From Bdellovibrionota bacterium (GTDB lineage Bacteria > Bdellovibrionota_C > UBA2361 > JAAYZI01), in assembly GCA_050950765.1 (NCBI GenBank), contig JBMNIF010000002.1, positions 529,454-593,453 of the forward strand: a stretch of 64,000 nt of DNA. Direction: 5' to 3'. This document shows positions 10,187 to 48,805 of this stretch, piece by piece; the stretch's first letter is position 1, and every line of letters begins with the position of its first letter. The position numbers were made by a program, and so were the translations under genes. The notes beneath the pieces are model-generated. The model saw nothing but the letters and a program-made list of their open reading frames with translations. It was not told the DNA's origin and made no database searches.

Positions 10187-10299
10187 ATCTAAACAAGGTA
10201 TACTAAGGCACAGGCTCTATTATCACCCCTCTTTATAAGTTCATTACATATTTCACGGCAGCTACTTCAAAGGAGTAGCATCTCTTAGAAAAAAAATTA

Positions 10300-12054
10300 T
10301 CATACCGCTTCAGCACCTTGAATCTGAAGTTGAATCTCTAAGAGACCGTTAAAAGAGTTTAGTGTAGGACGACACGCTAAATTAACCACGCCCCCCCGTT
10401 TTATAGCAGGATGTGAAGTTTGATTCCAGAGTAACGCCGGAAGGGTGCGTTTTCCATCCGACACCAGAGCCTTTAAATGTGTGCTTTTTAAGGTAAATGT
10501 CTCCACTATACGTAGATTTTTCAATAAGATCACAGGCGCAGGATTGCCTATGCCGTAAGGGGTAAAGATAGCAAGCTCATCGATAATTTTAGGTGTTAAC
10601 TCTGATAGATCCGCTACGGTATCAACTTCACAGATCGGAAAAAGATCATCGGGGCTAAGTTGTCTTTCTGCTTCATTATTAAAAGCTATACTAAAAGCCG
10701 AGATATTTTTTTCATCTAACGAAAACCCTCCGGCACCGACATGACCGCCGTAACCTAGTAAATAATCCGCACAATTTTTTAAAGCTTCAACAACATTAAA
10801 ACCTTTAATACCACGACAAGATCCTTTAAAAACTCCATTCTCATCAGATCCGATAATAGCAGTCGGACGGTAAAAGGTCTCAGCGATACGTTGTGCTACA
10901 ATCCCGACTACACCTGTATGAAAACTTTTATCACCTACCACGATACCGTACGGCAAACGTGTCATTAGCGAGATACGAAAGGCGACCTCTTTTTTTATTT
11001 TTTTCTCGAGATCTTGACGTTCAGCATTCAAACGATCAAGTTTATTTGCTAAAGAATCAGCTCTTTTTCGATCTGATGTTGTTAGAAGTTCAATCACCAT
11101 CTCGCCGCTCGACATCCTTCCCGCTGCATTGATTCTAGGCCCCACACCGAAAGAGATATCAGTAGCGCTAAGATTTTTTTTAACACCACTTACATTTAAT
11201 AAAGCTCTTAAACCCACCCTCTGTGTAGTGTTTAAACGCTCCATGCCACGCTTTGCGATTACTCGATTTGCTCCTAATAGCGGCACCATATCGCAGATCG
11301 TTCCCAAGCAGGAGAACTCCAGATAATCTCTAACATCAACAGCGGCAGCTTGCGGTAAAAAAGTTCTAAGTGCCGCTATAAAATACCACGTTAAACCTGC
11401 AGCACATAATTGCAGATCTGAAAAACCGCACCCCTCTTGCTCCGGATTTATAAAGCTATCAACCTCAAGTGGCTTTGTCCCGAGGTGATGGTGATCGATA
11501 ACGATAGTTATTAAGTCACGCTCTTTTGCATAAAGAAGTTCGGAATAATTTGTAGAGCCGAAATCAAGAGCTAAAAGGATACCGCAGCCCTCGTCAACTA
11601 CTTCATCTATCATCCTTTTATTTAAGCCGTAACCTTCTGTAAAACGATCAGGCACAAAGACTTTCGCCTCAATCCCGATCTCAGAAAAAAATGTTTTCAA
11701 CATAGCTCCGCTACTTAAGCCGTCAACATCAAAATCGCAGCAGATAGCTATGGTTTTCCCACGCTCCAGCCCTTCCTTTAAGATTAGGCAAGCTTCACTA
11801 AGATTTTTTAATTTATCAGGATGCGGCAGATCGGAACGTAAAGTTGAATCTAAAAATGATCGCAGCTCTTCCCCAGCCTCAAACCCACGTGCTGCCAAAA
11901 CTCGCGCCGTTAACGGAGAGAAATTAAATTCTTTTTGTATTTTTTCAACGGAATCGGTATTTGGTGATTTTACCCTTATTTTTTTTAGAAGGGGCAAAGG
12001 CTTTAATACTTCTACCCCTTCAAACACCATCTCTTCACAACAATTATTCATCAT
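10300..12054 (-). CDS. recJ: Single-stranded-DNA-specific exonuclease RecJ
   Basis: DHH family motifs: CDFDVDG, IDHHH, GGHVGAGG (DHHA1). The 584 aa length is typical. Confidence 0.85.
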   Translation of the reverse strand: MMNNCCEEMVFEGVEVLKPLPLLKKIRVKSPNTDSVEKIQKEFNFSPLTARVLAARGFEAGEELRSFLDSTLRSDLPHPDKLKNLSEACLILKEGLERGKTIAICCDFDVDGLSSGAMLKTFFSEIGIEAKVFVPDRFTEGYGLNKRMIDEVVDEGCGILLALDFGSTNYSELLYAKERDLITIVIDHHHLGTKPLEVDSFINPEQEGCGFSDLQLCAAGLTWYFIAALRTFLPQAAAVDVRDYLEFSCLGTICDMVPLLGANRVIAKRGMERLNTTQRVGLRALLNVSGVKKNLSATDISFGVGPRINAAGRMSSGEMVIELLTTSDRKRADSLANKLDRLNAERQDLEKKIKKEVAFRISLMTRLPYGIVVGDKSFHTGVVGIVAQRIAETFYRPTAIIGSDENGVFKGSCRGIKGFNVVEALKNCADYLLGYGGHVGAGGFSLDEKNISAFSIAFNNEAERQLSPDDLFPICEVDTVADLSELTPKIIDELAIFTPYGIGNPAPVILLKNLRIVETFTLKSTHLKALVSDGKRTLPALLWNQTSHPAIKRGGVVNLACRPTLNSFNGLLEIQLQIQGAEAV

Positions 12055-12199
12055 AAGTTATCTTTTAACACAGAACCTCTCCTCGTTCATCTCCTTTACT
12101 GACTTCTCTTTCAACTAAATTTCTCCAGTGTGAAAAATCTAAGATATTGGAATATAAGAAGAAGTTTTTAAGTATTTTTATCCACTGGGGACAGCAGAA

Positions 12200-12400
12200 C
12201 GGGCTAATACTGAAAACTGAATTGGCTAGTTTTCTACGAAGGTTAAAGTGCCGCCCTTCAGGGACGATTGAGCGGTCTGCTACTAAAAACTGAATTAGCT
12301 AGATCTTTACGAAGGTCAAAAATATTCTTGTACAATCTTGAAAATAGAGCGACATTTTTTGTCGGAGCGACATTTTTTGTCATATTTTCAAGAAAGCTCT
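12200..12400. promoter_or_regulatory. Repeat-rich region upstream of the pilin gene
   Basis: Two roughly 40-bp direct repeats (ctgaattggctagttttctacgaaggt / ctgaattagctagatctttacgaaggt). A tandem gagcgacattttttgtc x2 is flanked by the inverted repeat cttgaaaata..tattttcaag. Confidence 0.35.
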
Positions 12401-12723: not shown

Positions 12724-13113
12724 ATGAACGAAAAAGGTTTTACATTGATTGAACTCTTAGTTGTTGTTGGAATTATCGGCATCTTAGCTGCTATGGCTAT
12801 TCCACAATTCGCAGAGTACAGAAAGAACGCTTACAACGCTTCTGCTTCAAGCGACCTCAGAAATGCCGCCACAGCTGAAGAGGCTTATTATGCGTTAAAT
12901 GAAGAATACCTATCTTGTGAAAATGATGCTTGTGTTCGTAGCGCTGATGGCACCACTGGTCTTCCAGGTGTAAAAGCTATCTCCAGCTCAGTTCAATTAG
13001 CTATGGTAGCTGATGGTGATGAGTTTACAGGAACTGCACACTCTGAAAAAGGTAACAAGCAGTATTCATGGGATAGTGCTAACGGCGGTATGCAGGAGCC
13101 TACTGACCTCTAG
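12724..13113 (+). CDS. pilA: Type IVa pilin (prepilin-type N-terminal cleavage/methylation domain)
   Basis: MNEKG/FTLIELLVVVGIIGILAAMAIPQF has Gly-1, Phe+1 and Glu+5. C-terminal Cys pair (C-x5-C). About 129 aa. Confidence 0.8.
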   Translation: MNEKGFTLIELLVVVGIIGILAAMAIPQFAEYRKNAYNASASSDLRNAATAEEAYYALNEEYLSCENDACVRSADGTTGLPGVKAISSSVQLAMVADGDEFTGTAHSEKGNKQYSWDSANGGMQEPTDL

Positions 13114-13342: not shown

Positions 13343-14758
13343 ATGGGAAAGAAAGCAAAAATACACCCTGATTGGGCAACAAAATATCGAGAGAAAGGAA
13401 AAGAGGTACGTCTTATCAATGGGAGATATTACCTATATAGCTACAGCTATAAGTATGACCCTGAGAGGAAAAGGAGCGTGAAAGTTACTGGTAAATTACT
13501 TGGACGAATTACAGAAGAGGACGGTTTTATACCAAGTGAGAAGAGAAGCCTTGTACCTGCTGTGAATATTAAGTGCAGAGAGTATGGTTTATCTCAATTT
13601 ATCCTCAATCAAAAAACAATTATTGAAAGACTTCGGTGTTATTTTCCAGATAAGTGGAAGGCTATTTTGCTGATGTCATACAGCAGGATCAAACATTGCT
13701 CTCCTATTAAACGCATGAATGATGATTTTGAAAACAGTATGTTGAGTGAAAAACTTAATTTTCTTCTTAATAAGAAAGCTATTCCGAATATTTTGCAATC
13801 GATTGGGAAAGATGAATTTGCTCGTTCTGAATATATGAAGAGTTTTATTCATGGAAAAGATTTTTTGTTAATTGATTCTACATTTCTTAGAACATCTATG
13901 AGAAAGTCGAGTCTTGCTAAAGGAGGATATAATAAAGACCATTTTTGGGAAACGCAGGCGAGTTTGCTTTATATTTACTCTAAAAAATTGCAACAACCAG
14001 TCTATTATAGGTTATTGGCTGGGAATATAAGAGATGTAAAAGCTCTATCTTTAACTATCCAAGAATCAGAAATTGGTGATGCTACTATTATTGCAGATAA
14101 GGGTTTCTATTCAGAGTCTAACGTTAAAGATCTTATAGAGAATAAACTTAGCTTTGTTATTCCATTGCGTAGAAATAGCTCTCTTATAGACTATGATGGA
14201 ATAGAAACAAGCAGGAACGTTATTGAATATAATAAAACGTACTTAAGATATAAAAAATATAAGATTGGGAATGGATTTATATATCTGTTTAGAGACCCGT
14301 TTTTAGCAGGTGAAGAGGAAAATAACTTAGTTTCATTAACAATATCTCATCCAGAAAAATACAATTTAACAGATGTTGATTTAAAAAAAGTGAGGCTAGG
14401 AACTGTTGCATTCTTTTCAAATTTGGACTCATCCGCAGAAGAAATATACACGTTATACAAAATGCGACTATCTATTGAACAATCTTTTGATACGTTAAAA
14501 ACTGTTTTAAAAGCAGATGCTTCATATATGAGTGATGATGATAAATTTCAGGGATGGATGTTCGTGAATCACATAGCAATACAGTGGAGCTATGAAATAT
14601 TAAAAACAATAAAAAAACATAAACTTTCGACTTCAATATCATTAGAAGATGCTATCAGAAGGTTATCTGAAATTAAAAAAGTTAGGCTTGGGGACTCTTG
14701 GTATTTAGCCGAGCAAACTAAAGCAGAGCTAAAAATAGCCGAACTGTTACTTACTTAA
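13343..14758 (+). CDS. IS4/IS1634-like DDE transposase
   Basis: 471 aa. Has an ADKGFYSESN (DDE D2-like) region and the overall N-terminal architecture of IS1634-type transposases. Sits as an isolated gene between pilin and NUDIX genes. Terminal inverted repeats could not be defined by eye. Confidence 0.5.
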   Translation: MGKKAKIHPDWATKYREKGKEVRLINGRYYLYSYSYKYDPERKRSVKVTGKLLGRITEEDGFIPSEKRSLVPAVNIKCREYGLSQFILNQKTIIERLRCYFPDKWKAILLMSYSRIKHCSPIKRMNDDFENSMLSEKLNFLLNKKAIPNILQSIGKDEFARSEYMKSFIHGKDFLLIDSTFLRTSMRKSSLAKGGYNKDHFWETQASLLYIYSKKLQQPVYYRLLAGNIRDVKALSLTIQESEIGDATIIADKGFYSESNVKDLIENKLSFVIPLRRNSSLIDYDGIETSRNVIEYNKTYLRYKKYKIGNGFIYLFRDPFLAGEEENNLVSLTISHPEKYNLTDVDLKKVRLGTVAFFSNLDSSAEEIYTLYKMRLSIEQSFDTLKTVLKADASYMSDDDKFQGWMFVNHIAIQWSYEILKTIKKHKLSTSISLEDAIRRLSEIKKVRLGDSWYLAEQTKAELKIAELLLT

Positions 14759-20852: not shown

Positions 20853-22478
20853 CTAGAGATAGCCTCTTAGGTTTTCCATAACGGAGGTGATGTTTTGGAA
20901 ATCTACATATTCACGCTGCACCTTAAGCTCTTGCGGTAGCACCTCCTGTTTAGAACCTTTATTATCAAGTCTAATAACGAAGAGGGATATTTTATCGGCG
21001 CACTTTTCATATTCATCTATAAGATCCTGTATACCATCCCCCTTTGTGATCGGAGTGTCCGTTATAACGATTACAGAACGGTTAAACTTAGCCTCTACTG
21101 CACAAACTTCCTTTAGCGCTTGAGTGATAGCACGACCTCCGCCGCTTGGCGCTCCTATATCAGCACGATCTGTTTGCAGACCTTTACCTTTACTTTTACT
21201 TTTTACCTTACTTTTTTGCATCAGATGCAGAGCGTCACTTACCTTACTTTTATCTCCGACCTCAATCACACTATTTTTAGGAGACCCACCGTCTGCAACA
21301 ATCAGGTGTAAAACATCTTCATTTTTAGGAGTAAGCCAAAACTTTCCCTCCTCATTTTTCGCAATATCTGCGAAGGCTTCTTTTAATTCAGCACTAAAAC
21401 TATCTCTTAGCCCCATCTCCGCATTTAAAACAAATACTGCATAGCTCGGCTTTCTTAAAAACTCCTGATACCGTCCTAAAAACCTATTTAATTGAAACTT
21501 ATTTAAGCCGCTCCGCGTTGAAGCCTTTTGCAAGGGGCTTAAACCTCGCCAACTTTCAGAATCGTAATACTTACCGAAAGGAGTTCTGAAAAATGCACCT
21601 GCTAACCTTTTTTGTGCAGTCTTTCCCGTTAAGTAACGTTTAATATCTCTCACAAGTTTTTGTCTCTCCTTATCGCCTTTATGGAGATAAACAAGTTGTG
21701 CACTTATCCCATAAGGAGCTTGTGTAAAGTAGAGTACATCTCTCGGGATGAGCCCTTCTTGACGCATCTTTTTATTAAATCTAGCTGCCATGCGTTCTGT
21801 TACAATAACAGCATCATAGTTGGGGTCTTCAAAAACCCCTCTAAAATCAAGGGGATTAGGAGAGATAAAAGCTGCATTAGCTATAAAACGTTTTAAACTT
21901 TTTCTTAATTCTAACGGATTTTTTTCCGTTCCTTTTTTTTCTGCTAGTTTTAGAACTCCCAGATAAGTAGATAACCCGACGGGATGGTGCGTTGGCGTTA
22001 AAAAAGCGTATTTTAAACCCCCTTTTAAAGTTTCCTCAAAAAAAGCTTCCGCCTTTAAGGTACGATGAAATCCGTCTTGAAACGGCTTCCCCTTATCCTT
22101 ATTAAACGCCACAACTATGGGGCTAAACATAATCTGTTTTATCTCAAGAGCAAGTCTTGTCGCTGCGGAAAGTTGTAGCCACTCTATGGAGGGCATCAGC
22201 ACGATATCTGGATTTTGCAAAAGGTCTTCCTGCTGTAACGTTTGTAAGATCTCCGTGCTGGAGAGGTAGCGCACCCTAAAATCGTATTTATGATCCTTAC
22301 GTTGCTTAGCGTAGATAAATTCAGTAATTGTATTTCCCAACTCGTGCAGATCTGGTGTGGCGATTATCTCAAAGGTGGGACGTTTTATTACGTTATCACT
22401 TTGAAGGTGTCTAAAGACAATTCCGAGTGACACGATACAGATTATACATAAGGTTAAAAAAAGGAGCTTCTGTCTCAT
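20853..22478 (-). CDS. Secreted or membrane-anchored protein with possible C-terminal vWA-like region
   Basis: N-terminal signal/anchor. C-terminal SVIVITDTPITKGDG resembles the vWA TDG block. Last gene in the same orientation as the Tad-like operon. Confidence 0.35.
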   Translation of the reverse strand: MRQKLLFLTLCIICIVSLGIVFRHLQSDNVIKRPTFEIIATPDLHELGNTITEFIYAKQRKDHKYDFRVRYLSSTEILQTLQQEDLLQNPDIVLMPSIEWLQLSAATRLALEIKQIMFSPIVVAFNKDKGKPFQDGFHRTLKAEAFFEETLKGGLKYAFLTPTHHPVGLSTYLGVLKLAEKKGTEKNPLELRKSLKRFIANAAFISPNPLDFRGVFEDPNYDAVIVTERMAARFNKKMRQEGLIPRDVLYFTQAPYGISAQLVYLHKGDKERQKLVRDIKRYLTGKTAQKRLAGAFFRTPFGKYYDSESWRGLSPLQKASTRSGLNKFQLNRFLGRYQEFLRKPSYAVFVLNAEMGLRDSFSAELKEAFADIAKNEEGKFWLTPKNEDVLHLIVADGGSPKNSVIEVGDKSKVSDALHLMQKSKVKSKSKGKGLQTDRADIGAPSGGGRAITQALKEVCAVEAKFNRSVIVITDTPITKGDGIQDLIDEYEKCADKISLFVIRLDNKGSKQEVLPQELKVQREYVDFQNITSVMENLRGYL

Positions 22479-22698: not shown

Positions 22699-24600
22699 CT
22701 ACTCAATCTCAACTATCTGATACGGATTAACCCCCACTACATAATCATCCATAGCATCTTTAATCTGCTGGGCTTGCGTTCTGCAATCCGTAGTTACCAA
22801 CTGACCGTAACGTGTTCGATCACATTGATTTTTGCGCCATTCAGCTCCATCACAGATCTCCCCCACCTGTGTTAGTAAGGGAGCCCAGACACCACCTGTA
22901 TCAACTGCAAACTTATAAAGGTGCCGCATAGATTGGTAGAAAGGCTTAGAGGCGGTTTTGTTATTAAATACACCTTCACAATCACTACCAAAATCAGAAC
23001 ACCCTGAGCTCCCTCTTACAAAATCATATATACCGGTTTTATTTTTTGAAGACCTAAACTCAGCATCAGTAAAACACGTCCCCGTCTCAGTATTTTCTAA
23101 AGCAACCCAGTGTGGTCCCACATCCTTACCAACAGGAAAGATGTGTAGAGGGATATTGTTGGCTACCATAGTATTAACTACCCTCTGCAATTCATTCATG
23201 CCGTTTACATAGTAATTATAATCGCTTGCATTGCAATGTACTCCTGTAGTATCTCCATCCCAACAAGTTTGTAAACCATCAGTAAAAAGCACCACTGCAT
23301 TAGAAACGTTTTCAGAAGCCCCCTCACTATCAGCAAGTAACCTCTGAACCGCCTCTTCAAGCGCCTGCTTTATATGTGTTTGCCCCCTATTCGCTTGCGG
23401 ACGTTTATTTATATCTACACTATCAAACATAGGGATTAAACCGTACCTAACAGCACGCTCTACACCAGCACTTACATTTGAAAAAGGATCACGCGTATTA
23501 ATATCATCACTATCAAAGATACAGCCCTCTTCATCTGTATCTCCATCAGAGTAATCGGTAAAATTTATTAGTTGATCTAACTTATCGGTTAAGACCGTCA
23601 TCCTTGGCCAGAAGAGACCGTTTGAAAACATTATAACTCCCGCCTTATCTCCCGCTACGCTACGCGCCTTAAAAGCTTTTAAGGCGTTATGAATACCGTC
23701 ATAGATATCAGCTAACGGTTGAGGTCTCCCTTTAGTGCCTACTCCCCTATAAGCATAAACATGGAAAGACTCTCTACTGCCAAAGTTATATCTTTCATCT
23801 CCGATCTCTCTAGTAAATTTATCTTTACACGGATCAGCTGTGCTTGGGCAAGGGTGGAGATCTCGAAGCTCGTTACAAGTAAAATTATTATAATCGTCAT
23901 CACCAAGTACAAACTTCTGTTTGTAGTGCTTTGTATCTTCTCCAAAAGAAGTAAGCCTAAAAGTATAACAAGTATCACTTATCACATAATCAGGGCAATT
24001 ATACTCAAAATTAAAGGTATCTTGTGTAGTAGAGAAAGAGGTATCAACTAAAAAATAGATATGCCTCGGCACCACCATAGCCGTAGCTTTTACATAGGGG
24101 GCGATCTCTTTTATACCGAAGAACCTTCCAAAAGACATCTCCGTATCTCGTACATAGTTACCTGAGATACGTACGGCGTTAGGAGTGGTGCAATCTCCTG
24201 TCTCATCCGGAGTAAAAACCTGCTTTCCTAAGCTCTCGTCTCTCTTCCAACACCCCAACTCTAAACGAAAGAGGCTTTCTTCACCTAAACCAACTGCCCT
24301 TTGAGCAGACGCAGCATCTTCACTTTTAGGATCGTTATCATTTAATAACTTATTTACAGCCTCTACGGCTGCCTCTTTTGCCGCTTCTTTAGTTTCGTTA
24401 AGTGCCCTCGCTGAAACGTACTCTTCTAAAGCTCTTAAAGTTGCAAGTTTGGTATTTTGTCTCGCTTTTTCAGCGTCGTTCATCATACGACTAACATCGA
24501 TAACTATGGCAGCGAGACCAAAAATAACTATCATCGAGATACAGAAAAGAACCATAAAACCGCCGTTTTCTCGCTTCTTCATTAGCACCTTCCTTTTCAC
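22699..24600 (-). CDS. TadG-like pseudopilin with vWA domain
   Basis: N-terminus FMVLFCISMIVIFGLAAIVIDVSRMMNDAEKARQ is a TadE/G-like hydrophobic segment. MIDAS motif FLVDTSFST (DxSxS). Confidence 0.6.
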   Translation of the reverse strand: MKRKVLMKKRENGGFMVLFCISMIVIFGLAAIVIDVSRMMNDAEKARQNTKLATLRALEEYVSARALNETKEAAKEAAVEAVNKLLNDNDPKSEDAASAQRAVGLGEESLFRLELGCWKRDESLGKQVFTPDETGDCTTPNAVRISGNYVRDTEMSFGRFFGIKEIAPYVKATAMVVPRHIYFLVDTSFSTTQDTFNFEYNCPDYVISDTCYTFRLTSFGEDTKHYKQKFVLGDDDYNNFTCNELRDLHPCPSTADPCKDKFTREIGDERYNFGSRESFHVYAYRGVGTKGRPQPLADIYDGIHNALKAFKARSVAGDKAGVIMFSNGLFWPRMTVLTDKLDQLINFTDYSDGDTDEEGCIFDSDDINTRDPFSNVSAGVERAVRYGLIPMFDSVDINKRPQANRGQTHIKQALEEAVQRLLADSEGASENVSNAVVLFTDGLQTCWDGDTTGVHCNASDYNYYVNGMNELQRVVNTMVANNIPLHIFPVGKDVGPHWVALENTETGTCFTDAEFRSSKNKTGIYDFVRGSSGCSDFGSDCEGVFNNKTASKPFYQSMRHLYKFAVDTGGVWAPLLTQVGEICDGAEWRKNQCDRTRYGQLVTTDCRTQAQQIKDAMDDYVVGVNPYQIVEIE

Positions 24601-24786
24601 TATTATTTAATCGATAACATTACTTTTTCTCGAGCTATTAAGATTATAAATTTAACTCTACTATTTAAGTATTACGTAACACTTACTTCTTAAGATATCT
24701 AAAACTTATTACTAATAAGGTAGAGAGAAGGATTATAAAGTTACTCGCTATCATAATCCTTCTCTGCATTTTTTAATTATTCTTCC

Positions 24787-27700
24787 TTAACCTTGCTTGC
24801 TACGCACAACCCACTCACTTGTCGTTTCCATATAGTCACACCCAGCTATCTTTGTAATATCTCCGCAATTTTCGATCTCAGATTCTGTCATACATACTTT
24901 TTTCTCACCTATGGTAACTTCTTTTTTACCACTTTCACAAACGCACACACACTCACCTTTACTATTTCTTGAAGCAACAAGGCTTTGATGCCCACATTGA
25001 ATTTTTGTCTCATCACATCCGCAAGCGCACTCATCGGCGTAATACCTTTCATCTTCTCCACAGCCGATATTTATTTTAGAATTACCCTTAAGATTTCCAT
25101 TATCATCGTACTTACAGACACAAGTATTGTCTTCTACAATCTCGTTCTCGCCGCAACTTACACACTCTTCATTTTGCATTACAAACCCTGAATTGCAGAT
25201 ACAATCACCTACTTCTTCATCCCATACTGAGTTTTCAGTACACGTCTGACATTCACAATAAGAACCATTCATAACGAGGTGTTGGTTCTCTCCTTGACAG
25301 AAATCTCCTAGGTTTGCAGCACCTGCCCCGTCTTTTTTCTTAGCACGTCCTGTTAATGAGTCTCTATCATAGATACAAGCACACTGCGTATATATAGATG
25401 CAGAACTACTTCCACTATGCGGCACAAGTTCTGTCCCATCAGGGCAAAAATCACAACTACAATTAGTCGTATCTATTAAATATTGCCCCTGCTCATGACA
25501 CTTTTCTTCACTAGTTGTTATATCATCATCACCATCAATCCCAGTTGTACAGTCGCAACCAGTACCATCTTCATTTCCAACAAAAACTGTGCCATCTTCT
25601 GCGCAATCAACACATTCACAAGATGCTTCCTTAAATTGTTTACCTTCATGAGCGCACTTTTCCTTTACAAGCGCTTGAACTTCTTCACTACACTCACAAT
25701 TTAGTGACTTGCTATCAGTTGGTGTTTGAGAATCTTCAAGGGTGTTCGGAGTGCCCGCTCTATAATTACCGTCACAGATACACCCCGACCCATCTTCAGA
25801 TAATCTTTGATTGGGATTAGTAGTGCACGTCACACACGCACACTCTGCATAATCAAAGTATTCATCGTCGTTGTCACATTCTTCTTCGAAGTGTTTTCCA
25901 CCTTCTTCACTATACTTACACTCTTCACAGTTTAACTTTGTTATATCTGAAGACTCACCTAACTTATGATAAGAATCGCACGCACAAGCTTCTACTCCGA
26001 CCCCTCCAGTACTTGTAGTATTCTCTCCGCAAGAGAGGCAGTCACACTTTTCATAATCGAAGTATGTACCTTCAGGACATTTAGTACCATCACTACCAAA
26101 TGCAGCGCCGTCTACGTCTGAAGCATATTTACAAACGCAATCTCCTATCTCTTCACCTTCAGTAGATATAGTTTGATATGGAGTACAACAACTGCACTGA
26201 GTTATACTAAAGTTTCTTGAGTCCTTAATACAGGCTTCGTATTTGGTTTTAGTCTCTCCCTCTGTTATATTACAGGAACAGGTGCTACCTTTTACCGCTA
26301 CACTATCTTCACATTTACAATAAGCAGCGTTACCTTCTCTAATAAACGTACCACCTGTTTTTTCGCATAACTCTTCAAGCGTAGCAATATCAACATTATT
26401 AGGTCCAGCACCGGAGCTATTGCCCTTACCGTCGCCACCGCCGCTACCACCTTTTCCGCACTTTGCAGAATCTGTACAGGTACAACTTAAGCCGTCACCT
26501 TTATAGCCGTTAGTAGTATCACAGACACAAGTTGTACCATTAAAAGTTGCTCCCGTAGCAGTACAACACTTCTCCTCCTTGCAGGAACACGATCCCTTTT
26601 CACTGTAATAACCTTGTGAGTTGTCGCAGACGCAAGTATGGTTACCTTGTGCATCAGTACCTGCCGCATAACCTTTCTTAGAATCACAAACACAGTTCCC
26701 ATTAGCATCTTGGAAGGTATTGGCTATACAAATACACCCTGCTTCTGTTGCTTCTCTAAAATCTTGATTTCGACAAACACAGTTATCTGTCCCTGCTTCA
26801 AACTCATTACTGACACAGGTGCAACTACCATTTATCAGTGAACGATTGTTTTCACAGACACAGTTTCCGCCGTATGCCTTAAAGTATTTATTCTCATCAC
26901 AGACACAGATACCGTCTTTCCTTATATAATTATTACGGCAGACGCAGTTAGGCAGCTTAACAGAAACGCCCTCTATTGTCTCAGTTTTATAACTCAATAC
27001 CTCATTATTCGAACAACTTCCTATACCACCACAATCACAAGTATCTTCGCTAAATGGATTATAACCATGATCCTTACACCAAGCAGAGATCTCTCTTTTT
27101 TGAGCTTCTGTATAATTACATTCACACCTTTCAGTAGCAGAATTGTAAGTTTTATTTCTATCCCTACATTCGCAATCGCAGGTAGCTTTATTAAACTTTA
27201 AACCTCGATCACTACACCATTTTTGCACTGCCGTTTCATTACAAGAGCCGCCACCGCCGCCACCTGCTAGATCTCCAGCAGCTACTCCACCTCCTGTAAT
27301 ACCATCAGAGATATCACAGCTACAGATCTCAGTGTAATACGCCACCTTTTTATCGTAGCAGTATTGTTTAGAATTTGGTGTATTAGCCTCCTCATCATCA
27401 CACTCACAGGCACAGGTATCTGTATTTAACTTACCAAGCCCGTTCTTTGTTATACAATCTTCAGGGGTAAGGGGGCACTCACAAACCATACTCCCCTCTT
27501 CCTCTGTAACTACAAAGTTCTCAGGACAGACACACTCATAATACCCTTTTTTAGTCTCTTTTACCGTCCAAGCTCCACTTCCACAAGAATCACAGGAGCA
27601 GGTCTCTGCGTTAAAGATAGAAGCTCCTTGCCTAGTACAATCATCTTGAGAATCCCTATATTTAGGACATTGACATTCACAATAATACTTCGTCTCTTTT

Positions 27701-29475
27701 TTTTCATTTATAGTTATAGTTTTAGATTTTTTACTAGGTACCTTATTCCCCTTACATCCATTAGGATCACAACTAAGCTCACATGTATATTTATCGTTAT
27801 TTTTAATAAGGTGTGCTTGGAGCATTTTATCTCCATCTAATCCACCTAGCTTTGAAACATCACATTCGCACATACAGTTATCTTGATTAACTTTCTGATG
27901 GTCAGGATCGTAGCAGTTACTATTCTCTTTAAAATATTCTTTTAAAGTATATATTTTGTAACAATCACAACTATCACGTGCCGTTCTTCCCTTTTTAGCT
28001 GGATCGCTACAAGCACAATATAAAGATGAAGAGTTAGCACTTCTCTCAGTGCCTTCAGGACAATCGACACAAGTCCAGTGCCCATCGATTACTTGTACAG
28101 TTTGATTATCTTCACAATCACAATCACAAGTTGGAATTTGGCTTGAAGGTGTCAAGCTTTTACAAAGCCCTTTTTCACATTCGCACCATTCATTTCCTGC
28201 CCCATCACTCTTTTTAACAGAGCCTCGATTACATATTTGACAATTACCGCTGGCATTTTTTACATAATTATCATTACAAACACACTCTAAACCATCTTCA
28301 GAGGCGTGCGCATTAGATCCGCACTGTACGCACTGACAGGCACTATTAACTACTGTTTTACACCCTTCAAAAGTTGCCTCATCAGTAGGTTTAAGATCTG
28401 TTGGTGTAGGATTAGCACTATTGTCGCAACAGATACTATCACCAACCTCCTTCCAAACTAGCTTTGAATAATCGCAGACACAACTGTTATCTTCTGCGCT
28501 ATACTCTTGATTCTCCGCACAGTTATTACAGTAACAGCCGCCACCTGTCTCGTAAGTGCCGACTACGCCTGCACACACAAAGCCACTCCCCTCGATATCA
28601 TAGAGGCATCGACATCCACTCCCTTCTTCATCTGTATACAACACCTCATTTGGTCCACAATTTGTTGTATTATTTACACATGCACAGACTCCACGCTCAT
28701 CTCTAATAGCGACCTGATAGGCGGTATTACAATTAATCAGTTCAGGCTTACAAAGACACTTTCCATCTTCATCCTTTTCACACTCTAATAACGGCGGCAT
28801 ATTTGATTTCGTACTAAGCTCTCTATAAGCAGAAGCTTTAGCTGTAAAAACAAAATCAGGTATCCACGGTGAAAGTGTTTTATACTTGGTGTGGACTGTC
28901 ACTTCTATTGGGATTCTAGTTAGACCGTCTCTTAACGATTTCGATTCCTCAGTAGCTTCACCCTCAAGAGCGTACTTAGCTCCTTGAACGGGGAGTTTAA
29001 TCTCTATTATTCCTTTATCTGTTGCTTTTCCTTGCTCGTCATCTCTTACAGCTAATAGCTGCACAACCCCTTTGTCATTAACCTTTCTCTCTTCAATCTC
29101 TTTATCGTTTAGAGTTCCGATTAAAAAACCCTCCATATACTTATAAGCACGGTCTCTAATGCTTATCATCGCAGGTGCATTTTCTTGAATACCAACTTCA
29201 CTACACTCTTCCTGACCAGTATTCATATTCACTACGCAAAGATCTTTGACCACATCTTCAAGATCCGGCACAACAGCTGCCAGTTGTGCAGCCTGTTCTG
29301 CTGCATTTTGGATGGTGGTCTTAGCATAAAGCGCAAATGAAAAGTCTATAATTCCTAAAATTAGGATTAGGAATATCGGTATTCCTATGGCGAACTCAAC
29401 CATCGTTGCACCACAATTTCTTACGTTGTTATTTTTAATAGTAGTCATAATAATTACCTCATTAAATACCAACAC
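24787..29475 (-). CDS. Giant (1562 aa) TadE-like pseudopilin-N-terminus protein made of cysteine-rich CxC repeats
   Basis: N-terminus GATMVEFAIGIPIFLILILGIIDFSFALY (TadE-like). About 1300 aa of repeating C-x-C-x(10-16)-C units (CVCDENKY.., CVCENN.., CTCVSN.., CVCRNQ..). Gly-rich linkers (GGGGGGS). Start overlaps the stop of the upstream tadE-like gene. Confidence 0.6.
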   Translation of the reverse strand: MLVFNEVIIMTTIKNNNVRNCGATMVEFAIGIPIFLILILGIIDFSFALYAKTTIQNAAEQAAQLAAVVPDLEDVVKDLCVVNMNTGQEECSEVGIQENAPAMISIRDRAYKYMEGFLIGTLNDKEIEERKVNDKGVVQLLAVRDDEQGKATDKGIIEIKLPVQGAKYALEGEATEESKSLRDGLTRIPIEVTVHTKYKTLSPWIPDFVFTAKASAYRELSTKSNMPPLLECEKDEDGKCLCKPELINCNTAYQVAIRDERGVCACVNNTTNCGPNEVLYTDEEGSGCRCLYDIEGSGFVCAGVVGTYETGGGCYCNNCAENQEYSAEDNSCVCDYSKLVWKEVGDSICCDNSANPTPTDLKPTDEATFEGCKTVVNSACQCVQCGSNAHASEDGLECVCNDNYVKNASGNCQICNRGSVKKSDGAGNEWCECEKGLCKSLTPSSQIPTCDCDCEDNQTVQVIDGHWTCVDCPEGTERSANSSSLYCACSDPAKKGRTARDSCDCYKIYTLKEYFKENSNCYDPDHQKVNQDNCMCECDVSKLGGLDGDKMLQAHLIKNNDKYTCELSCDPNGCKGNKVPSKKSKTITINEKKETKYYCECQCPKYRDSQDDCTRQGASIFNAETCSCDSCGSGAWTVKETKKGYYECVCPENFVVTEEEGSMVCECPLTPEDCITKNGLGKLNTDTCACECDDEEANTPNSKQYCYDKKVAYYTEICSCDISDGITGGGVAAGDLAGGGGGGSCNETAVQKWCSDRGLKFNKATCDCECRDRNKTYNSATERCECNYTEAQKREISAWCKDHGYNPFSEDTCDCGGIGSCSNNEVLSYKTETIEGVSVKLPNCVCRNNYIRKDGICVCDENKYFKAYGGNCVCENNRSLINGSCTCVSNEFEAGTDNCVCRNQDFREATEAGCICIANTFQDANGNCVCDSKKGYAAGTDAQGNHTCVCDNSQGYYSEKGSCSCKEEKCCTATGATFNGTTCVCDTTNGYKGDGLSCTCTDSAKCGKGGSGGGDGKGNSSGAGPNNVDIATLEELCEKTGGTFIREGNAAYCKCEDSVAVKGSTCSCNITEGETKTKYEACIKDSRNFSITQCSCCTPYQTISTEGEEIGDCVCKYASDVDGAAFGSDGTKCPEGTYFDYEKCDCLSCGENTTSTGGVGVEACACDSYHKLGESSDITKLNCEECKYSEEGGKHFEEECDNDDEYFDYAECACVTCTTNPNQRLSEDGSGCICDGNYRAGTPNTLEDSQTPTDSKSLNCECSEEVQALVKEKCAHEGKQFKEASCECVDCAEDGTVFVGNEDGTGCDCTTGIDGDDDITTSEEKCHEQGQYLIDTTNCSCDFCPDGTELVPHSGSSSASIYTQCACIYDRDSLTGRAKKKDGAGAANLGDFCQGENQHLVMNGSYCECQTCTENSVWDEEVGDCICNSGFVMQNEECVSCGENEIVEDNTCVCKYDDNGNLKGNSKINIGCGEDERYYADECACGCDETKIQCGHQSLVASRNSKGECVCVCESGKKEVTIGEKKVCMTESEIENCGDITKIAGCDYMETTSEWVVRSKQG

Positions 29476-29478
29476 TTC

Positions 29479-30147
29479 CTAGTTTCTAATCAGATATGGA
29501 GTAGTCTCCGTTATAGTAACGTCAGCCTTACCTCCTATAAACACCGCGAAATTAAAGATACTTTTATACGGCACCGAGACCTCTACCTTCACACGAGTGA
29601 CTGAGGAAACTGAATAAACAACATCCTCTGTATTATCATTTTTTTCAGCACACGGTTTGTACTCATCGCCACACAAGGTTTCAACTTTTCTAATAGATCC
29701 CTCTGGCTCAATATAATTCGAATATCCCGCCCATCTAGGCGGTTTTTGTCTTCTTAAAAGTGAATTAACCCTATCTAATACAGCGTACTGCGCAACGTTA
29801 CTGCCATCTATAACAGAAGAACGCTCTCCATTCCCCACCTCCGTAGCATACCCCTTTCCGATACTCGGTCTCGAAGCAGCAAACCTAGCACCTTCATAAG
29901 CGATACTTTTTAATTTGAAGTATTCGTTCAAATAACAGGAGACTTCAAAGATGCCGACCAATATCAGTAGCATCACAGGAGCAACCAGCGCTAACTCTAC
30001 TAAAACCAATCCACGCTCTTTTATATTTTTCCTGCTCGTGCTTTTAGAAGAGGGGAAAAGGTGAGATAACCCTCTGTAAAATTTTGTCCTTTCTGTTTTT
30101 TCTGAAGCACTAAGCATAATTAAACCGAAAAAACTTATAACAACCAC
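29479..30147 (-). CDS. TadE-like pseudopilin
   Basis: ERGLVLVELALVAPVMLLILVGIFEVSCYL matches the TadE N-terminal consensus. First gene of the operon. Has an extra hydrophobic N-terminal extension. Confidence 0.6.
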   Translation of the reverse strand: MVVISFFGLIMLSASEKTERTKFYRGLSHLFPSSKSTSRKNIKERGLVLVELALVAPVMLLILVGIFEVSCYLNEYFKLKSIAYEGARFAASRPSIGKGYATEVGNGERSSVIDGSNVAQYAVLDRVNSLLRRQKPPRWAGYSNYIEPEGSIRKVETLCGDEYKPCAEKNDNTEDVVYSVSSVTRVKVEVSVPYKSIFNFAVFIGGKADVTITETTPYLIRN

Positions 30148-36956: not shown

Positions 36957-39900
36957 ATGCAGAAGTTTACCTTAAGAACCTTGAAATTAGTTGTGCTGTT
37001 TAGCTTTTTCTGTGGCAGTCTGGCAGGTGCGGAAACTTTTTTGCCAACCACTCAAAATTATAACTATAATTTCAACATCCTAAACAACTTATCAACACCG
37101 CCTACTGCACAAAACTTTAATATTAAAAACTTCTCTCTCTTCTCTACCTTAAAAAAATCACTCCCCTTTAGAAGAGAGTTCTTTGGAAATCCTCCCCCTT
37201 ATCTAGCAGCGCAAGTAACCTCCATCTCTATGGGCTACTTTCACGCCTGTGCTATTGTAGGAGGGCGTCTCTATTGTTGGGGGCTTAACTCCTCCGGTCA
37301 ACTCGGGATTAACAGCACTGACACCACAACAACTCCAACTTTAACTTACGACCCTAGCACAACCTCTTTTACAGGTTTATTAGGTGGTCAAGGTGTCTCT
37401 TCTGTTTCTGCTAATGGTTATAACACCTGCGCTATCAACGCAGACGGTAAACTTTACTGTTGGGGAGAAAATGACTCTGGTCAAGTCGGGAATGGAACTC
37501 TAGGATTTGATTGTAAGTATCCAGTATTAATTGAAGATCCAAGTACACTTTCTTGTAGTGGTCTTCTAGGTTCAGAAACAGTTATCGCCGTTTCAGTAGG
37601 TGCTTCGCCCAACGACACTCCTGAAGGAGAGAGCTCCGGTAGAACTCACGTTTGCGCTATAAATGCAGATGATAAACTTTACTGTTGGGGAGATAACACC
37701 TTCGGACAATTAGGCGACGGACAAAGCGGAGGGTCTTTACCGCGTCTTGTAGGGGATAGCGGAACTTTAAATGGAAGAGGTGTTGTTCAAGTTTCAGCAG
37801 GATACAGTTTTACCTGTGCTATCAATACAGAGAGTCTCCTTTTTTGTTGGGGCAAAAACGATTACGGACAGTTGGGGATTTATTCAACAGAAAATACCAC
37901 CTCCCCCACACCTATATATAATGCAGATCCAGAAAAAGTTGGTGGACTTGGAACTGGAAACGATCCAGCGGTTATGTCAGTTTCAGCAGGTACAACTCAC
38001 ACCTGTGCCATAGAGAGCGGATATCTTTTCTGTTGGGGAGATGGTAGTTATGGAGCGCTTGGAAATGGTGATGGAACAGATAGAAGTTTTCCAGTCGCTA
38101 TCAATAAAGGATCTCCACCAGGTCAATTAGACGGAAGTATTGTTCTATCTACCTCTTCAGGATCTGGTTTTACCTGCGCTATCAACGAGATCGGTGAAAT
38201 TTATTGCTGGGGGAAAAATACTGATAAAAAACTACTCGGGATTAGTGGAGTAGATACTAGATTTCCCCAGCTTGTGGCAGGTTCAGATAGTAATCCCAAT
38301 CCTGGCTTACTAGGCACATATACTGTAAATGCCGTTTCTTGTTCAAACTCCGGTCCCTCCTATCAATCGATCTGCGGCATAAACTCACAACATAATCTTT
38401 ATTGCTGGGGAGATAGTAACTTTGGTCAATTAGGACAAAACTCTACCACTACCAATACAACACCGACACAAACACTCTTTAATGAAGACTCCACTTGTAA
38501 CGGTATCGATGATGATGGTGATGGATTAACTGATGAAGATTACGTTTCTGTATCTTGTAACACAGGGCTACACGGTTTATGCGCAGCAGGAACAACATCT
38601 TGTAACGCCGGAAGTGTAGTTTGTAATCAGACAAATTCTCCTACAACTGAGATCGCTTGTAATAATATCGATGATGACTGTGACGGTATAACTGATACTG
38701 ATGCTGCAGGTTACGGAGCTGCTTGTAATAACGGGCTACTCGGTGCGTGTTACAAAACAGGCACGATGTCAGTTTGTGATGGAGGAGTTTTAACGTGCTC
38801 TGCTCCAAACGTTGAACCTACAACTGAAGTCGCTTGTAATAATATCGATGATGACTGTGATGGAGTAACTGATACTGATGCTGCAGGTTACGGAGCTGCT
38901 TGCAATAACGGGTTACTCGGTGCGTGTTATAAAACAGGCACGATGTCAGTTTGTGATGGAGGAGTTTTAACGTGCTCTGCTCCAAACGTTGAACCTACAA
39001 CTGAAGTCGCTTGTAATAATATCGATGATGACTGTGATGGAGTAACTGATACTGATGCTGCAGGTTACGGAGATGCTTGTAATAACGGACTACTCGGTGC
39101 GTGTTATAAAACAGGCACGATGTCAGTTTGTGATGGAGGAGTTTTAACGTGCTCTGCTCCAAACGTTGAACCTACAACTGAAGTCGCTTGTAATAATATC
39201 GATGATGACTGTGATGGAGTAACTGATACTGATGCTGCAGGTTACGGAGCTGCTTGTAACAACGGACTACTCGGTGCGTGTTATAAAACAGGCACGATGA
39301 CTCTTTGTGAAGGAGGGGTTTTAACGTGTTCTGCTCCAGATGCAGATCCAGTAAGTGAAATTTGCGGTAACGGCATTGATGATGATTGTGATGGTGAAAC
39401 TGATGAAGATTGCAATGCAGAAACTCCTACCCCTACCCCTCCAGCGCCTTTTGTAGATGCTTGTCCTACCGACCCGAATAAAACTGAAGCAGGAGTTTGC
39501 GGCTGCGGTATAGCCGATAGCGATCATAACAATAACGGCATAATTGATTGCCTTGACCCGAAGTGGCCGACAACAAAAATAGATAGTATCGTTACACCAA
39601 ACACCAAACCTGTCACTCCACGGGTAGATGTAGTAAAGAAAAAGGTCGTCGTTTATATGCAACGTTTTAAACGTGCCGAGCTACTGAAAAAATTACGTAA
39701 CGTAGTTAACTATGCCAAAAAAAATAAAAGGAAAAAAATTACCTTTAGGTATGAAGTTGTTCTAAGACAGGTCTCTACTAAAACAACGTATAAAAGTATC
39801 ACGAAGAAAAAGATTCAATCTCGGATCTCAAAACGTAATAAAGTAATCTTTAAGAAACAGCGGCAAGGAACTTACAAAATTAAGTACAGAGTTAAGATCT

Positions 39901-39971
39901 ATAAGAACGGTAAACTTGCTAAGAACACGAAGTGGAGCGATTCTAAAACTGTTACAGTTTCGAAAAAGTAG
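36957..39971 (+). CDS. Secreted RCC1-repeat protein with MopE-like cysteine repeats and lysine-rich C-terminal tail
   Basis: Signal peptide. About 7 RCC1 blades (YCWG.N..GQLG). Four near-identical 56-aa repeats CNNIDDDCDGVTDTDAAGYGAACNNGLLGACYKTGTMSVCDGGVLTCSAPNVEPTTEVA (CxxxDDDCDG metal-binding-type motif). Basic K-rich C-terminus. Confidence 0.7.
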   Translation: MQKFTLRTLKLVVLFSFFCGSLAGAETFLPTTQNYNYNFNILNNLSTPPTAQNFNIKNFSLFSTLKKSLPFRREFFGNPPPYLAAQVTSISMGYFHACAIVGGRLYCWGLNSSGQLGINSTDTTTTPTLTYDPSTTSFTGLLGGQGVSSVSANGYNTCAINADGKLYCWGENDSGQVGNGTLGFDCKYPVLIEDPSTLSCSGLLGSETVIAVSVGASPNDTPEGESSGRTHVCAINADDKLYCWGDNTFGQLGDGQSGGSLPRLVGDSGTLNGRGVVQVSAGYSFTCAINTESLLFCWGKNDYGQLGIYSTENTTSPTPIYNADPEKVGGLGTGNDPAVMSVSAGTTHTCAIESGYLFCWGDGSYGALGNGDGTDRSFPVAINKGSPPGQLDGSIVLSTSSGSGFTCAINEIGEIYCWGKNTDKKLLGISGVDTRFPQLVAGSDSNPNPGLLGTYTVNAVSCSNSGPSYQSICGINSQHNLYCWGDSNFGQLGQNSTTTNTTPTQTLFNEDSTCNGIDDDGDGLTDEDYVSVSCNTGLHGLCAAGTTSCNAGSVVCNQTNSPTTEIACNNIDDDCDGITDTDAAGYGAACNNGLLGACYKTGTMSVCDGGVLTCSAPNVEPTTEVACNNIDDDCDGVTDTDAAGYGAACNNGLLGACYKTGTMSVCDGGVLTCSAPNVEPTTEVACNNIDDDCDGVTDTDAAGYGDACNNGLLGACYKTGTMSVCDGGVLTCSAPNVEPTTEVACNNIDDDCDGVTDTDAAGYGAACNNGLLGACYKTGTMTLCEGGVLTCSAPDADPVSEICGNGIDDDCDGETDEDCNAETPTPTPPAPFVDACPTDPNKTEAGVCGCGIADSDHNNNGIIDCLDPKWPTTKIDSIVTPNTKPVTPRVDVVKKKVVVYMQRFKRAELLKKLRNVVNYAKKNKRKKITFRYEVVLRQVSTKTTYKSITKKKIQSRISKRNKVIFKKQRQGTYKIKYRVKIYKNGKLAKNTKWSDSKTVTVSKK
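38630..39300. repeat. Four near-identical 168-bp tandem repeats inside the RCC1 protein gene
   Basis: Copies differ by only a few nucleotides at the DNA level. Confidence 0.8.
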
Positions 39972-40086: not shown

Positions 40087-41052
40087 TTAGGAAAGTTCCA
40101 GCAAGTCAGAACCTCCATTAGAATCTGCCTTATCAAAATCTACTTCATTAAGGCTTCCAGCAGGACCTCCATCGCTGCCTCTCGATTCAAGAAAGTCATC
40201 GAGGGATTGGTCTACACGTTCTCCCATTGTTCTATGAAAGTCTTCTTCAGGAACATGTTCAATAAAATTTTCTATCCTTTCTATCCTTTCTTTTAAAGTG
40301 TCTGCTATTTCAGGACCACACTCTTCTGCTAAGCGCTTAATTTCCTTAAGATAAGAAGAAAGGTTCCTAGGATCTCTATCTTTAACTTGTTCTTCAGAGA
40401 TTTTTAAATAATTGTCAATACACCTCTTCCTTACATTTTGGTAAGAATCTTTAAGTAATTGTGCATCATCTTCAGACAATTTAATATTTGCCTTTTCATA
40501 AGAGAACTTAATATCTTCTATTAAGCTATCGGCAAAAGCTACATCATCTTTATTTACTCCCTGCTTTTCTACTATTTGTTGCAAATGATACTTTAAAGAG
40601 GAAATTGAGTTCTCACAACAACGCTGTAAAAATTCATCGAGCAGCTCACTTTGATATTTTTTAATTTTTTCAATTGCTCCACTTGCAAACGAGACACTAC
40701 CACTTGCAGCGTACTCCTCCAAACATTGCAAATAGTGCTGAATACCGTTTCTTCGTGCTGAGAGTAAACAAGATTGCAGCTCTCCAAGCTCTTCTGCACT
40801 AAACAGATTAGTATTAGAAGAACCAACTTTAGCTTTACGCATCTCATCAAAGACCTTATCTGCTCTAGCAACAGCCCCATACTTGGCATAAAATTTTAAG
40901 CGCCACAGGAAAAAATCTTTGGAGACACTTGGACTGAGAAAAGACGCTTCTTCTAGTGGAGGACTTTCGGAACCCTCTTTAGGATCTATGCCTTGACGAT
41001 CTTGACGAGTTCGTTTTTGATATGACGGATTATCTGATTTTATTGGCGGCAT
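40087..41052 (-). CDS. Paralog-family B protein (copy 1), unknown function
   Basis: Pro/Ser-rich N-terminus. Shares LQSCLLSARRNGIQHYLQC and YLKISEEQVKDRDPRNLSSYLKEIKRLAEECG blocks with 41305..42135. Confidence 0.45.
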   Translation of the reverse strand: MPPIKSDNPSYQKRTRQDRQGIDPKEGSESPPLEEASFLSPSVSKDFFLWRLKFYAKYGAVARADKVFDEMRKAKVGSSNTNLFSAEELGELQSCLLSARRNGIQHYLQCLEEYAASGSVSFASGAIEKIKKYQSELLDEFLQRCCENSISSLKYHLQQIVEKQGVNKDDVAFADSLIEDIKFSYEKANIKLSEDDAQLLKDSYQNVRKRCIDNYLKISEEQVKDRDPRNLSSYLKEIKRLAEECGPEIADTLKERIERIENFIEHVPEEDFHRTMGERVDQSLDDFLESRGSDGGPAGSLNEVDFDKADSNGGSDLLELS

Positions 41053-45909: not shown

Positions 45910-46035
45910 ATACCTTACGGCGTAAAGATATGCTTATGATAAAAAAGGGGTGGGTGCTGCTTAGGCTTTTTTTGAATAATTTTTTAGATAAGAATCCTGC
46001 ACAATTGATTGATGCTAAATTTATGGAGTTTTATT

Positions 46036-48085: not shown

Positions 48086-48169
48086 ATTAAGACGGTAACG
48101 GTGCAACTCTATCGACGAGCACCTTTTTTAAAAACAGATAAAAAACCATCTTTCAAGGTGTAAAGAGAA

Positions 48170-48728: not shown

Positions 48729-48805
<77 letters not shown>

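Follow-up and report, generated by a model that had tools for sequence, protein, structure and literature searches.

A probable stand-alone minor-pilin module with a giant cysteine-rich TadE-type subunit in a Bdellovibrionota bacterium

Three consecutive minus-strand genes at 22699-30147 of a 64-kb stretch of DNA from a Bdellovibrionota bacterium (the whole of this stretch is referred to below as the window) encode proteins with pilin-type N-termini, the middle one being a giant of 1,553 amino acids (aa) in which a pilin-like domain is followed by a very long cysteine-rich stalk. We consider it probable, at roughly 0.6, that these genes constitute a stand-alone minor-pilin module, i.e. a tip or initiation complex, of a Tad (type IVc) pilus. 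This reading draws on the domain content and N-terminal motifs of the three proteins, on the conservation of the module in other lineages, on the absence of nearby tad machinery, and on a comparison with a sister strain in which the cysteines of the giant are conserved and its distal end is hypervariable.

Results

Domain content and N-terminal motifs

Gene 1 (29479..30147, minus strand) encodes a small TadE-like minor pilin of 222 aa (212 aa with an alternative ATG), identified by its Pfam TadE match and by motifs shared with its orthologues. Gene 2 (24787..29448, minus strand), the giant, encodes a TadE-type minor pilin of 1,553 aa with matches to both TadE and Tad and with an extension built of CxC repeats. 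Gene 3 (22699..24582, minus strand) encodes a TadG/CpaL-like protein of 627 aa, in which an N-terminal helix is followed by a vWA domain split by an insertion.

Pfam cut-offs were 22.9 bits for TadE (PF07811), 22.3 bits for Tad (PF13400), 23.8 bits for VWA (PF00092) and 27.1 bits for DUF5874 (PF19202). Gene 1 scores 39.5 bits for TadE, and gene 2 scores 54.4 bits for TadE (57.9 bits when its N-terminal fragment is searched in isolation) and 25.2 bits for Tad. Gene 3 reaches 34.9 bits for VWA, and its N-terminus 16.2 bits for Tad, which is below the cut-off; across the gene 3 family, the Tad match is weak and is found in three of five members, with a best E-value of 9e-4. hhalign aligns the N-terminus of gene 3 and that of the TadE type in register (E = 1.3e-4, probability 54%). 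TadE/TadG-type N-termini had been assigned to all three proteins in the initial annotation; those of genes 1 and 2 score above threshold, and that of gene 3 remains below it for Tad. The NCBIfam scan returned no family for any of the three proteins.

All three proteins begin with a short polar leader, followed by a Gly, four residues and a Glu or Phe, and then a hydrophobic helix. With a slash placed after the Gly, the prepilin-peptidase motif of gene 1, which precedes its hydrophobic helix, reads KERG/LVLVELALVAPV (KERG/LVLVEL) and that of gene 2 reads RNCG/ATMVEFAIGIPIF (NCG/ATMVEF), both of the G-X4-E form; the corresponding motif of gene 3, ENGG/FMVLF, is of the G-X4-F form. In the homologues of genes 1 and 2, the G-X4-E motif is kept with its Glu at +5. 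G/A-X4-F/E is the consensus of the Caulobacter CpaA substrates (PMC12607857). TadE and TadF proteins are typically small (~150-200 aa), a size that fits gene 1 (222 aa) and does not fit gene 2 (1,553 aa).

In gene 3, the DTSFS sequence that had been read as a vWA MIDAS motif (DxSxS; 24031..24045, minus strand) is indeed part of a VWA match: it occupies residues 180-184 of the 627-aa protein, and its D, S and S are invariant in five homologues. At the sequence level, residues 392-508 match the remainder of the VWA profile (positions 69-164) and include LFTDG (residues 432-436), the domain being split after DTSFS by an insertion of ~200 aa. A second conserved element, NPYQIVEIE, lies at the extreme C-terminus (22702..22728, minus strand) and is conserved in homologues of 25-37% identity; five homologues, down to 25% identity, share the motif G-V-N-P-Y-x-I-V-(E/D)-x-(E/H), which in gene 3 reads GVNPYQIVEIE. 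CpaL ends in a six-residue beta-strand, which completes its pilin-like sheet and on which pilus assembly depends (PMC13533445). By analogy, the C-terminus of gene 3 is a candidate beta-strand folding back onto the pilin-like domain. An AlphaFold2 (AF2) model computed from a 3-sequence alignment has a pLDDT of 35, and the C-terminal strand is not visible in so poor a model. Homologues of gene 3 are 92% (P0002), 33% (P0003), 30% (locus L013, best segment) and 25% (locus L010) identical to it. Sequence and profile searches of the PDB with the TadG-like family found no match. When GTDB species-representative genomes were scanned twice with TadG-like alignments, gene 3 had no relatives among them; the family is rare.

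Architecture of the giant protein

Gene 2 divides into a pilin-like N-terminal domain (28783..29448, minus strand; aa 1-222) and a Cys-rich stalk (24790..28782, minus strand; aa 223-1553). The protein contains 161 Cys (10.4% of its residues), 157 of them in the stalk, where they occur mostly as CxC pairs. In all, 57 Cys pairs are spaced CxC, and in the stalk they usually follow one another at intervals of 11-16 residues, for example as CVCxxN(F/Y)xxxxGxC. Of the 161 Cys, 160 lie after residue 60; the number in the mature part (160) is even, and all of them could pair. Tandem DNA repeat searches and self-BLAST revealed no recent internal duplication. We therefore regard the repeats as old and degenerate ones and reject recent slippage as the way in which they expanded.

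The entire N-terminal domain of ~220 aa is shared, at 25-32% identity, with P0064 (665 aa), P0005 (355 aa), P0019 (262 aa, truncated by an insertion sequence, IS) and P0008 (a 248-aa fragment), and in all four it is followed by CxC repeats of differing length. The pilin domain is conserved and the stalk length differs, the complete homologues of the middle protein measuring 355 and 665 aa against 1,553 aa here. On sequence grounds, the giant is the longest known member of a small family that combines a TadE pilin domain with a CxC-repeat stalk. Among 5.8 billion proteins searched by word index, the giant matches itself alone, and the same type of search with the N-terminal-domain profile recovered one true family member. 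Residues 1-1200 of the giant were also run exhaustively with HMMER against 1.84 billion representatives, among which there was no full-length relative; ~240 small TadE proteins match its residues ~10-70. An AF2 model of the N-terminal 281 aa (5-sequence alignment) shows a long helix at residues 10-59, with a mean pLDDT of only 47.

For the stalk, no Pfam family was found above cut-off and no NCBIfam family at all, and PDB sequence and profile searches with the giant gave no match. The only Pfam signal is DUF5874 (PF19202), which in a fragment spanning aa 722-980 totals 20.1 bits over four stretches, below the cut-off of 27.1. Residues 834-994 align with unrelated CxC extracellular proteins (E = 1e-11 to 1e-4), three of which (P0006, P0027 and P0071) pass the DUF5874 cut-off.

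The composition of the stalk bears on an alternative in which the module builds a short pseudopilus, similar to the piston of a type II secretion system (T2SS), and the giant is released as a secreted adhesin or toxin carrier. The protein is strongly acidic (261 D+E against 144 K+R), the stalk is likewise highly acidic and looks soluble, and the Myxococcus Tips have been proposed to help effector delivery. However, Pfam, NCBIfam and PDB scans detected no protease site, effector domain or enzyme domain in the giant, and its sole hydrophobic segment (residues 16-40), in the N-terminal alpha-1 helix, would hold it in the fibre or the membrane. We regard release of the giant as quite improbable.

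Recurrence of the module in other lineages

The three-gene order is found in full at one other locus at least (L010) and in part at five more (L011, L012, L009, L013 and L014), the loci varying from 37 to 48% in GC content. At L010, a TadE-like protein (188 aa) is followed by P0064 (665 aa) and by a full-length gene 3 homologue of 811 aa (E = 1e-28), and the module is flanked by DnaK, PurL and a subtilase. L011 and L012, the latter from a metagenome-assembled genome (MAG) of Candidatus Dadabacteria, each have a TadE-like protein followed by a TadE+CxC protein. The same pair occurs in L009, where it is IS-interrupted: at 10001-12356 of that locus, an insertion carrying DDE_Tnp_1 truncates the TadE+CxC gene (P0019), so the module can be lost or inactivated in some lineages. 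Orthologues of gene 1 in L010, L011 and L009 share the motif ISYEGARF and a C-terminal PYL.

L013 and L014 each comprise the C-terminus of a Cys-rich protein followed by a TadG-like protein, of 765 and 776 aa, respectively. They are differing copies within one very large assembly of more than 14 million contigs (JAEEGL01..., GCA_016648615.1), and represent either one organism with several modules, as with the four Tips of Myxococcus, or two related organisms. Within the sequence available at L009-L014, no tad machinery is adjacent to the module, which instead adjoins housekeeping genes.

Absence of pilus machinery from the surroundings

The window was scanned with Pfam or NCBIfam for all 42 open reading frames (ORFs) of at least 150 aa, and by a six-frame motif search. 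None of the 42 ORFs encodes TadA/B/C/Z, RcpA/C, TadV or Flp, and the motif search found no further Flp- or TadE-type N-termini. Tad machinery had been reported as missing for 20 kb on each side of the module; in fact, the flanks free of it measure 22 and 34 kb. The neighbours are housekeeping or miscellaneous genes, among them PFOR, a flotillin-like SPFH protein, RecJ, a LeuA-like protein, topoisomerase I, IMPDH and an IS transposase.

The most serious rival to a Tad tip complex dispenses with the pilus altogether. The three proteins would then be pilus-independent envelope proteins, their TadE/Tad N-terminus would be a signal anchor only, and the giant would be a cell-bound, disulfide-rich partner of the vWA protein. 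Such an arrangement would account for the lack of machinery near the module at every locus seen, for a stalk that looks too long for a pilus-tip subunit, and for the sub-threshold Tad domain of gene 3. However, a plain anchor would need no G-X4-E/F, and yet this motif, with its Glu5, is kept in genes 1 and 2 and in their homologues. The triad also matches the logic of CpaJ/CpaK/CpaL, the conserved C-terminal motif of gene 3 fits beta-strand addition for pilus initiation, and without a secretin there would be no apparent route to the outer surface. We think it unlikely that the proteins act as anchored envelope proteins independent of a pilus.

One pilin gene does occur in the window. At 12724-13113 (plus strand), 10 kb from the module, lies a 129-aa type IVa pilin (MNEKGFTLIELL..., with GFTLIELL and an IV_pilin_GFxxxE domain), directly followed downstream by an IS transposase (DDE_Tnp_1; 13343-14758, plus strand). 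This gene shows that the organism has a type IVa pilus (T4aP) system, and it suggests that the peptidase PilD is present here, which could serve TadE-like proteins too.

A T4aP (or T2SS-like) machinery, rather than a Tad system, might service the module, which would then act as an alternative tip set for T4aP. In addition to the pilin gene itself, PilD processes Flp in B. bacteriovorus, and the N-terminus of gene 3 is weakly GspG-like (E = 0.005). But the N-termini of the module are of the TadE/Flp type and not of the GFxxxE methylation type, the Pfam matches are to TadE and Tad, and T4aP systems use sets composed of PilVWX/FimU and PilY1. A tip set for T4aP is, in our view, improbable.

Divergence of the stalk between strains

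We compared the locus with that of a sister strain (L003), the giant over its last 614 residues, and computed dS and dN by the Nei-Gojobori method. Identity is 98% for the gene downstream of the module, 92-93% for gene 3 and 68% for the last 614 residues of the giant (39 gap positions). It falls to ~40-55%, with many indels, over the last ~280 residues, which define a hypervariable distal (C-terminal) part of the stalk (24790..25630, minus strand; ~aa 1275-1553). Of the 70 alignable Cys of the giant, 69 are conserved, against 68% identity at its non-Cys positions.

The same gradient is seen in the substitution rates, dS and dN being 0.057 and 0.007 for the downstream gene, 0.141 and 0.042 for gene 3, and 0.336 and 0.189 for the C-terminus of the giant, where local values rise to 0.74 for dS and 0.40 for dN. 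The dN/dS ratio is below 1 in all three compared genes and is 0.56 overall in the variable region of the giant. This ratio, together with the raised dS, points to allelic recombination, with the loops of a fixed disulfide scaffold also under relaxed or diversifying selection. Positive selection as a proven cause was rejected: the ratio does not exceed 1 and dS is raised too.

These values also bear on whether the cluster is what remains of a lost tad locus, in decay and without any function today. It is isolated from any machinery, and the homologous gene in L009 is disrupted by an IS, as a remnant might be. Yet the 4.7-kb ORF of the giant is intact, contigs from four or more metagenome samples or sequencing runs carry it in identical form, the cysteines of the giant are conserved near-perfectly between strains, all three compared genes have a dN/dS below 1, and the same gene order is kept across lineages of differing GC content. 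That the cluster is a mere relic is highly improbable.

Gene boundaries and neighbouring genes

Public gene calls on metagenome contigs whose DNA is identical to the locus (JGI 3300060803, JGI 3300060823 and Logan runs) give 222, 1553 and 627 aa for the three proteins. The maximal ORF of gene 2, 24787-29475, corresponds to the 1562 aa reported in the initial annotation; the ORF and its Cys richness were described correctly, and the called protein, which starts at the ATG at 29448, has 1553 aa. For gene 3, the maximal ORF is 22699-24600 (633 aa) and the called ATG at 24582 gives 627 aa. The TAG stop of gene 1 lies at 29481-29479 and the earliest possible start of gene 2, a GTG, at 29475. The called ATG of gene 2 is preceded by a GAGGT ribosome-binding site and is separated from gene 1 by a 30-nt spacer, so that the start-to-stop overlap proposed earlier for these two genes, and with it translational coupling of that kind, is incorrect.

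Between the stop of the giant and the start of gene 3 there is a gap of 204 nt. It contains a stem-loop (24724..24766, minus strand) with a 14-bp stem, 20 nt past the gene 2 stop and without a U-tract (-22.1 kcal/mol, z = -3.39), possibly an element that stabilises the mRNA or partially terminates transcription. From gene 3 to the next gene downstream there are another 220 nt. Adjacency on the same strand is thus as originally described, and a single operon of genes 1-3 is plausible, though uncertain in view of the gap and its hairpin.

Directly downstream of gene 3, at 20853-22478 (minus strand), lies the gene of a 541-aa protein with an SBP_bac_11 domain (43.6 bits) and a weak C-terminal VWA_3 match. 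It is 98% identical in the sister strain and does not stand beside the module in other lineages. We considered this gene and the SLT and PA14 genes as members of the module and rejected them, as they are not adjacent to it in L010, L013 and L014.

Several other genes of the window deserve mention. A second Cys-rich surface protein is encoded at 36957-39971 (plus strand): it is a secreted protein of 1,004 aa, with RCC1 repeats followed by four near-identical, MopE-like Cys-rich repeats of ~58 aa (ACNNIDDDCDGVTDTDAAGYG). Two adjoining paralogues at 40087-41052 and 41305-42135 (both minus strand), which have no Pfam or NCBIfam match, share an N-terminal SPLEEAS...RLKFYAKYG and a C-terminal YLKISEEQVKD.D.RNLS.YL.EIKRLAEECG. 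The 139-aa product of 45490-45909 (plus strand) has a signal-peptide-like N-terminus and consists almost wholly of YDKYG(N/S)K(T/I)G(S/T) repeats. The product of 445-1656 (plus strand), of 403 aa, scores 147 bits against the archaeal "Hvo_1808 family surface protein" model, below the cut-off of 200, a type of match unexpected for a Bdellovibrionota genome. Three tRNA-Ser genes (GGA, GCT and TGA; minus strand) and one tRNA-Arg gene (ACG; plus strand) cluster at 47997-48805 and are adjoined by a tRNA-adenosine-deaminase-like gene at 48852-49322. A C-5 cytosine DNA methylase is encoded at 46009-47070 (plus strand), with no recognisable restriction partner among the scanned neighbours, and a Fic-domain protein at 52184-53302 (plus strand).

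Discussion

We favour the view that genes 1-3 encode a stand-alone tip or initiation complex of a Tad pilus. From the features described above, we infer processing, heterotrimer formation, a location at the tip, a rod shape of the stalk and an adhesive or recognition function, as follows. The pilin-type N-terminal helix would insert each of the three proteins into the inner membrane, where a prepilin peptidase, either TadV/CpaA or, as in B. bacteriovorus, the T4aP peptidase PilD, would cleave after the Gly of the G-X4-E/F motif. The alpha-1 helices would then join the three proteins into a heterotrimer that primes the polymerisation of the Flp pilin by Tad machinery whose genes lie elsewhere in the genome. 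In this complex, the apical subunit would be gene 3, of the TadG/CpaL (PilK-like) type, its MIDAS-containing vWA domain serving in adhesion or mechanosensing; gene 1 would be a plain TadE/F-type partner (CpaJ/CpaK-like) and gene 2 a second partner of the TadE/F type, to which a stalk of ~1,330 residues has presumably been added. This stalk could hold up to ~80 disulfides and be made of CxC beta-hairpin-like (EGF/DUF5874-like) units, and its strain-variable distal end might serve as the element that recognises a ligand, a surface or a prey.

Several points weigh against this model. The window contains no Tad ATPase, platform, secretin, peptidase or Flp, so that the partner machinery is assumed. 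The Tad N-terminal domain of gene 3 is sub-threshold and weak in its homologues. The AF2 models of the gene 2 N-terminus and of gene 3 are of low confidence, so that the pilin folds, the trimer and the rod are putative. If extended, a stalk of 1,330 residues would greatly exceed the width of the periplasm, and it is hard to see how the subunit that bears it would be folded, oxidised and passed through an RcpA-type secretin. Gene 3 may not be co-transcribed with genes 1 and 2, given the 204-nt gap and its hairpin. Finally, the dN/dS of the variable region and its elevated dS speak for recombination or mosaicism and not for proven positive selection.

A more specific, and speculative, picture is that the stalk forms a rigid, disulfide-laddered rod, tens of nm long, on the tip of a predator's Tad pilus, i.e. 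a strain-specific "probe" whose recombining distal end sets which prey or surfaces are recognised and whose length (355, 665 or 1,553 aa) is tuned by evolution. A more radical version would make the module a self-sufficient display system that needs no Tad machinery. Taken together, these proposals strike us as doubtful. As to the distinct secretion or display system that the initial annotation offered as an alternative, nothing positively supports it.

If the favoured reading is correct, the giant is among the largest pilin-type proteins described. The locus would then be a tractable case for studying how bulky cargo is folded, oxidised and threaded through the secretin of a type IV filament, as well as a case for how uncultured Bdellovibrionota recognise their targets. 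Part of this was already known: the NCBI entry for the giant (MGI6524552.1, on a 1.25-Mb contig) is named [quoted passage not shown], and the concept of a stand-alone TadEFG-like module has been established since 2025. What appears to be new is the existence of TadE-type minor pilins with CxC stalks as a family, on which we found no paper in the literature, together with its extreme 1,553-aa member, the location of the variable element on a TadE/F-type subunit, and a hypervariable distal end on a fixed Cys scaffold.

Four groups of known systems can be compared with the module. Firstly, DUF5874 (PF19202) and EGF-like CxC proteins (P0004, P0006, P0027 and P0071) resemble the stalk in their 13-17-residue CVCxxxxGY...C units. 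Unlike the giant, they carry Sec or lipoprotein signals or are eukaryote-like in architecture, and they have no pilin domain; the family is uncharacterised.

Secondly, CpaJ/CpaK/CpaL of Caulobacter crescentus and TadE/TadF/TadG of Aggregatibacter likewise combine two TadE-type minor pilins with a split-vWA protein of ~600 aa (PMC12607857, PMC13533445). CpaJ-CpaK-CpaL are predicted to be at the pilus tip, and CpaL, of ~600 aa, has a pilin-like module followed by a vWA domain split by an insert (PMC12607857). The G/A-X4-F/E cleavage motif is common to these systems and to the module, and the conserved C-terminal strand of their vWA protein has a putative counterpart in the conserved motif of gene 3. 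In contrast, their genes lie in or beside the tad/cpa locus and their TadE/F proteins are of ~150-200 aa, whereas the module is isolated and one of its TadE/F-type proteins is ~8x larger.

Thirdly, the tad genes of B. bacteriovorus are dispersed over at least five loci, which include a lone tadG for the tip protein; these loci lack TadV, and PilD processes Flp (bioRxiv 10.64898/2026.07.08.737194). By this published description, the two cases are alike in phylum and in the scattering of their genes, and differ in that no Cys-rich giant minor pilin is described there.

A fourth parallel is provided by Myxococcus xanthus, which has four KilLMN "Tip" clusters, three of them away from the machinery; all are disulfide-rich, and they confer prey specificity (Herrou et al. 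2025, PMC12075869); structural analogues of the Kil Tips have been reported in Bdellovibrio and Bradymonas (PMC12075869). The initial annotation had treated the stand-alone arrangement as near-unprecedented. The TadE matches, the motifs, the vWA domain and the recurring gene order fit a stand-alone module, but Myxococcus Tip1-3 (PMC12075869) and B. bacteriovorus (bioRxiv 10.64898/2026.07.08.737194) are precedents for it. Like the module, the Kil Tips consist of three adjacent TadE-, TadF- and TadG-like minor-pilin genes with prepilin sites that can be encoded apart from the machinery, they have many predicted disulfides, and one of their subunits bears a variable distal domain thought to recognise prey. 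The likeness is drawn from the published description, and no T3SS* or Kil machinery is seen in the window.

The two systems part ways in where the large variable domain is carried. In the Kil Tips, the TadG-like subunit KilN bears it, as a domain of mixed alpha/beta fold, whereas here the extension, a CxC stalk of ~1,330 aa, is on a TadE/F-type subunit and the TadG-like protein is an ordinary CpaL-like vWA protein. Recent work shows that predators owe their prey specificity to interchangeable minor-pilin tip complexes, by which Tad pili gain their functions. The locus described here would broaden this picture in three respects: the specialised variable element can be carried by a TadE/F-type subunit and not by TadG/KilN, it can take the form of a very long, disulfide-rich stalk of repeats whose length can evolve, and its distal end can diversify between close strains while the Cys of the scaffold stay fixed.

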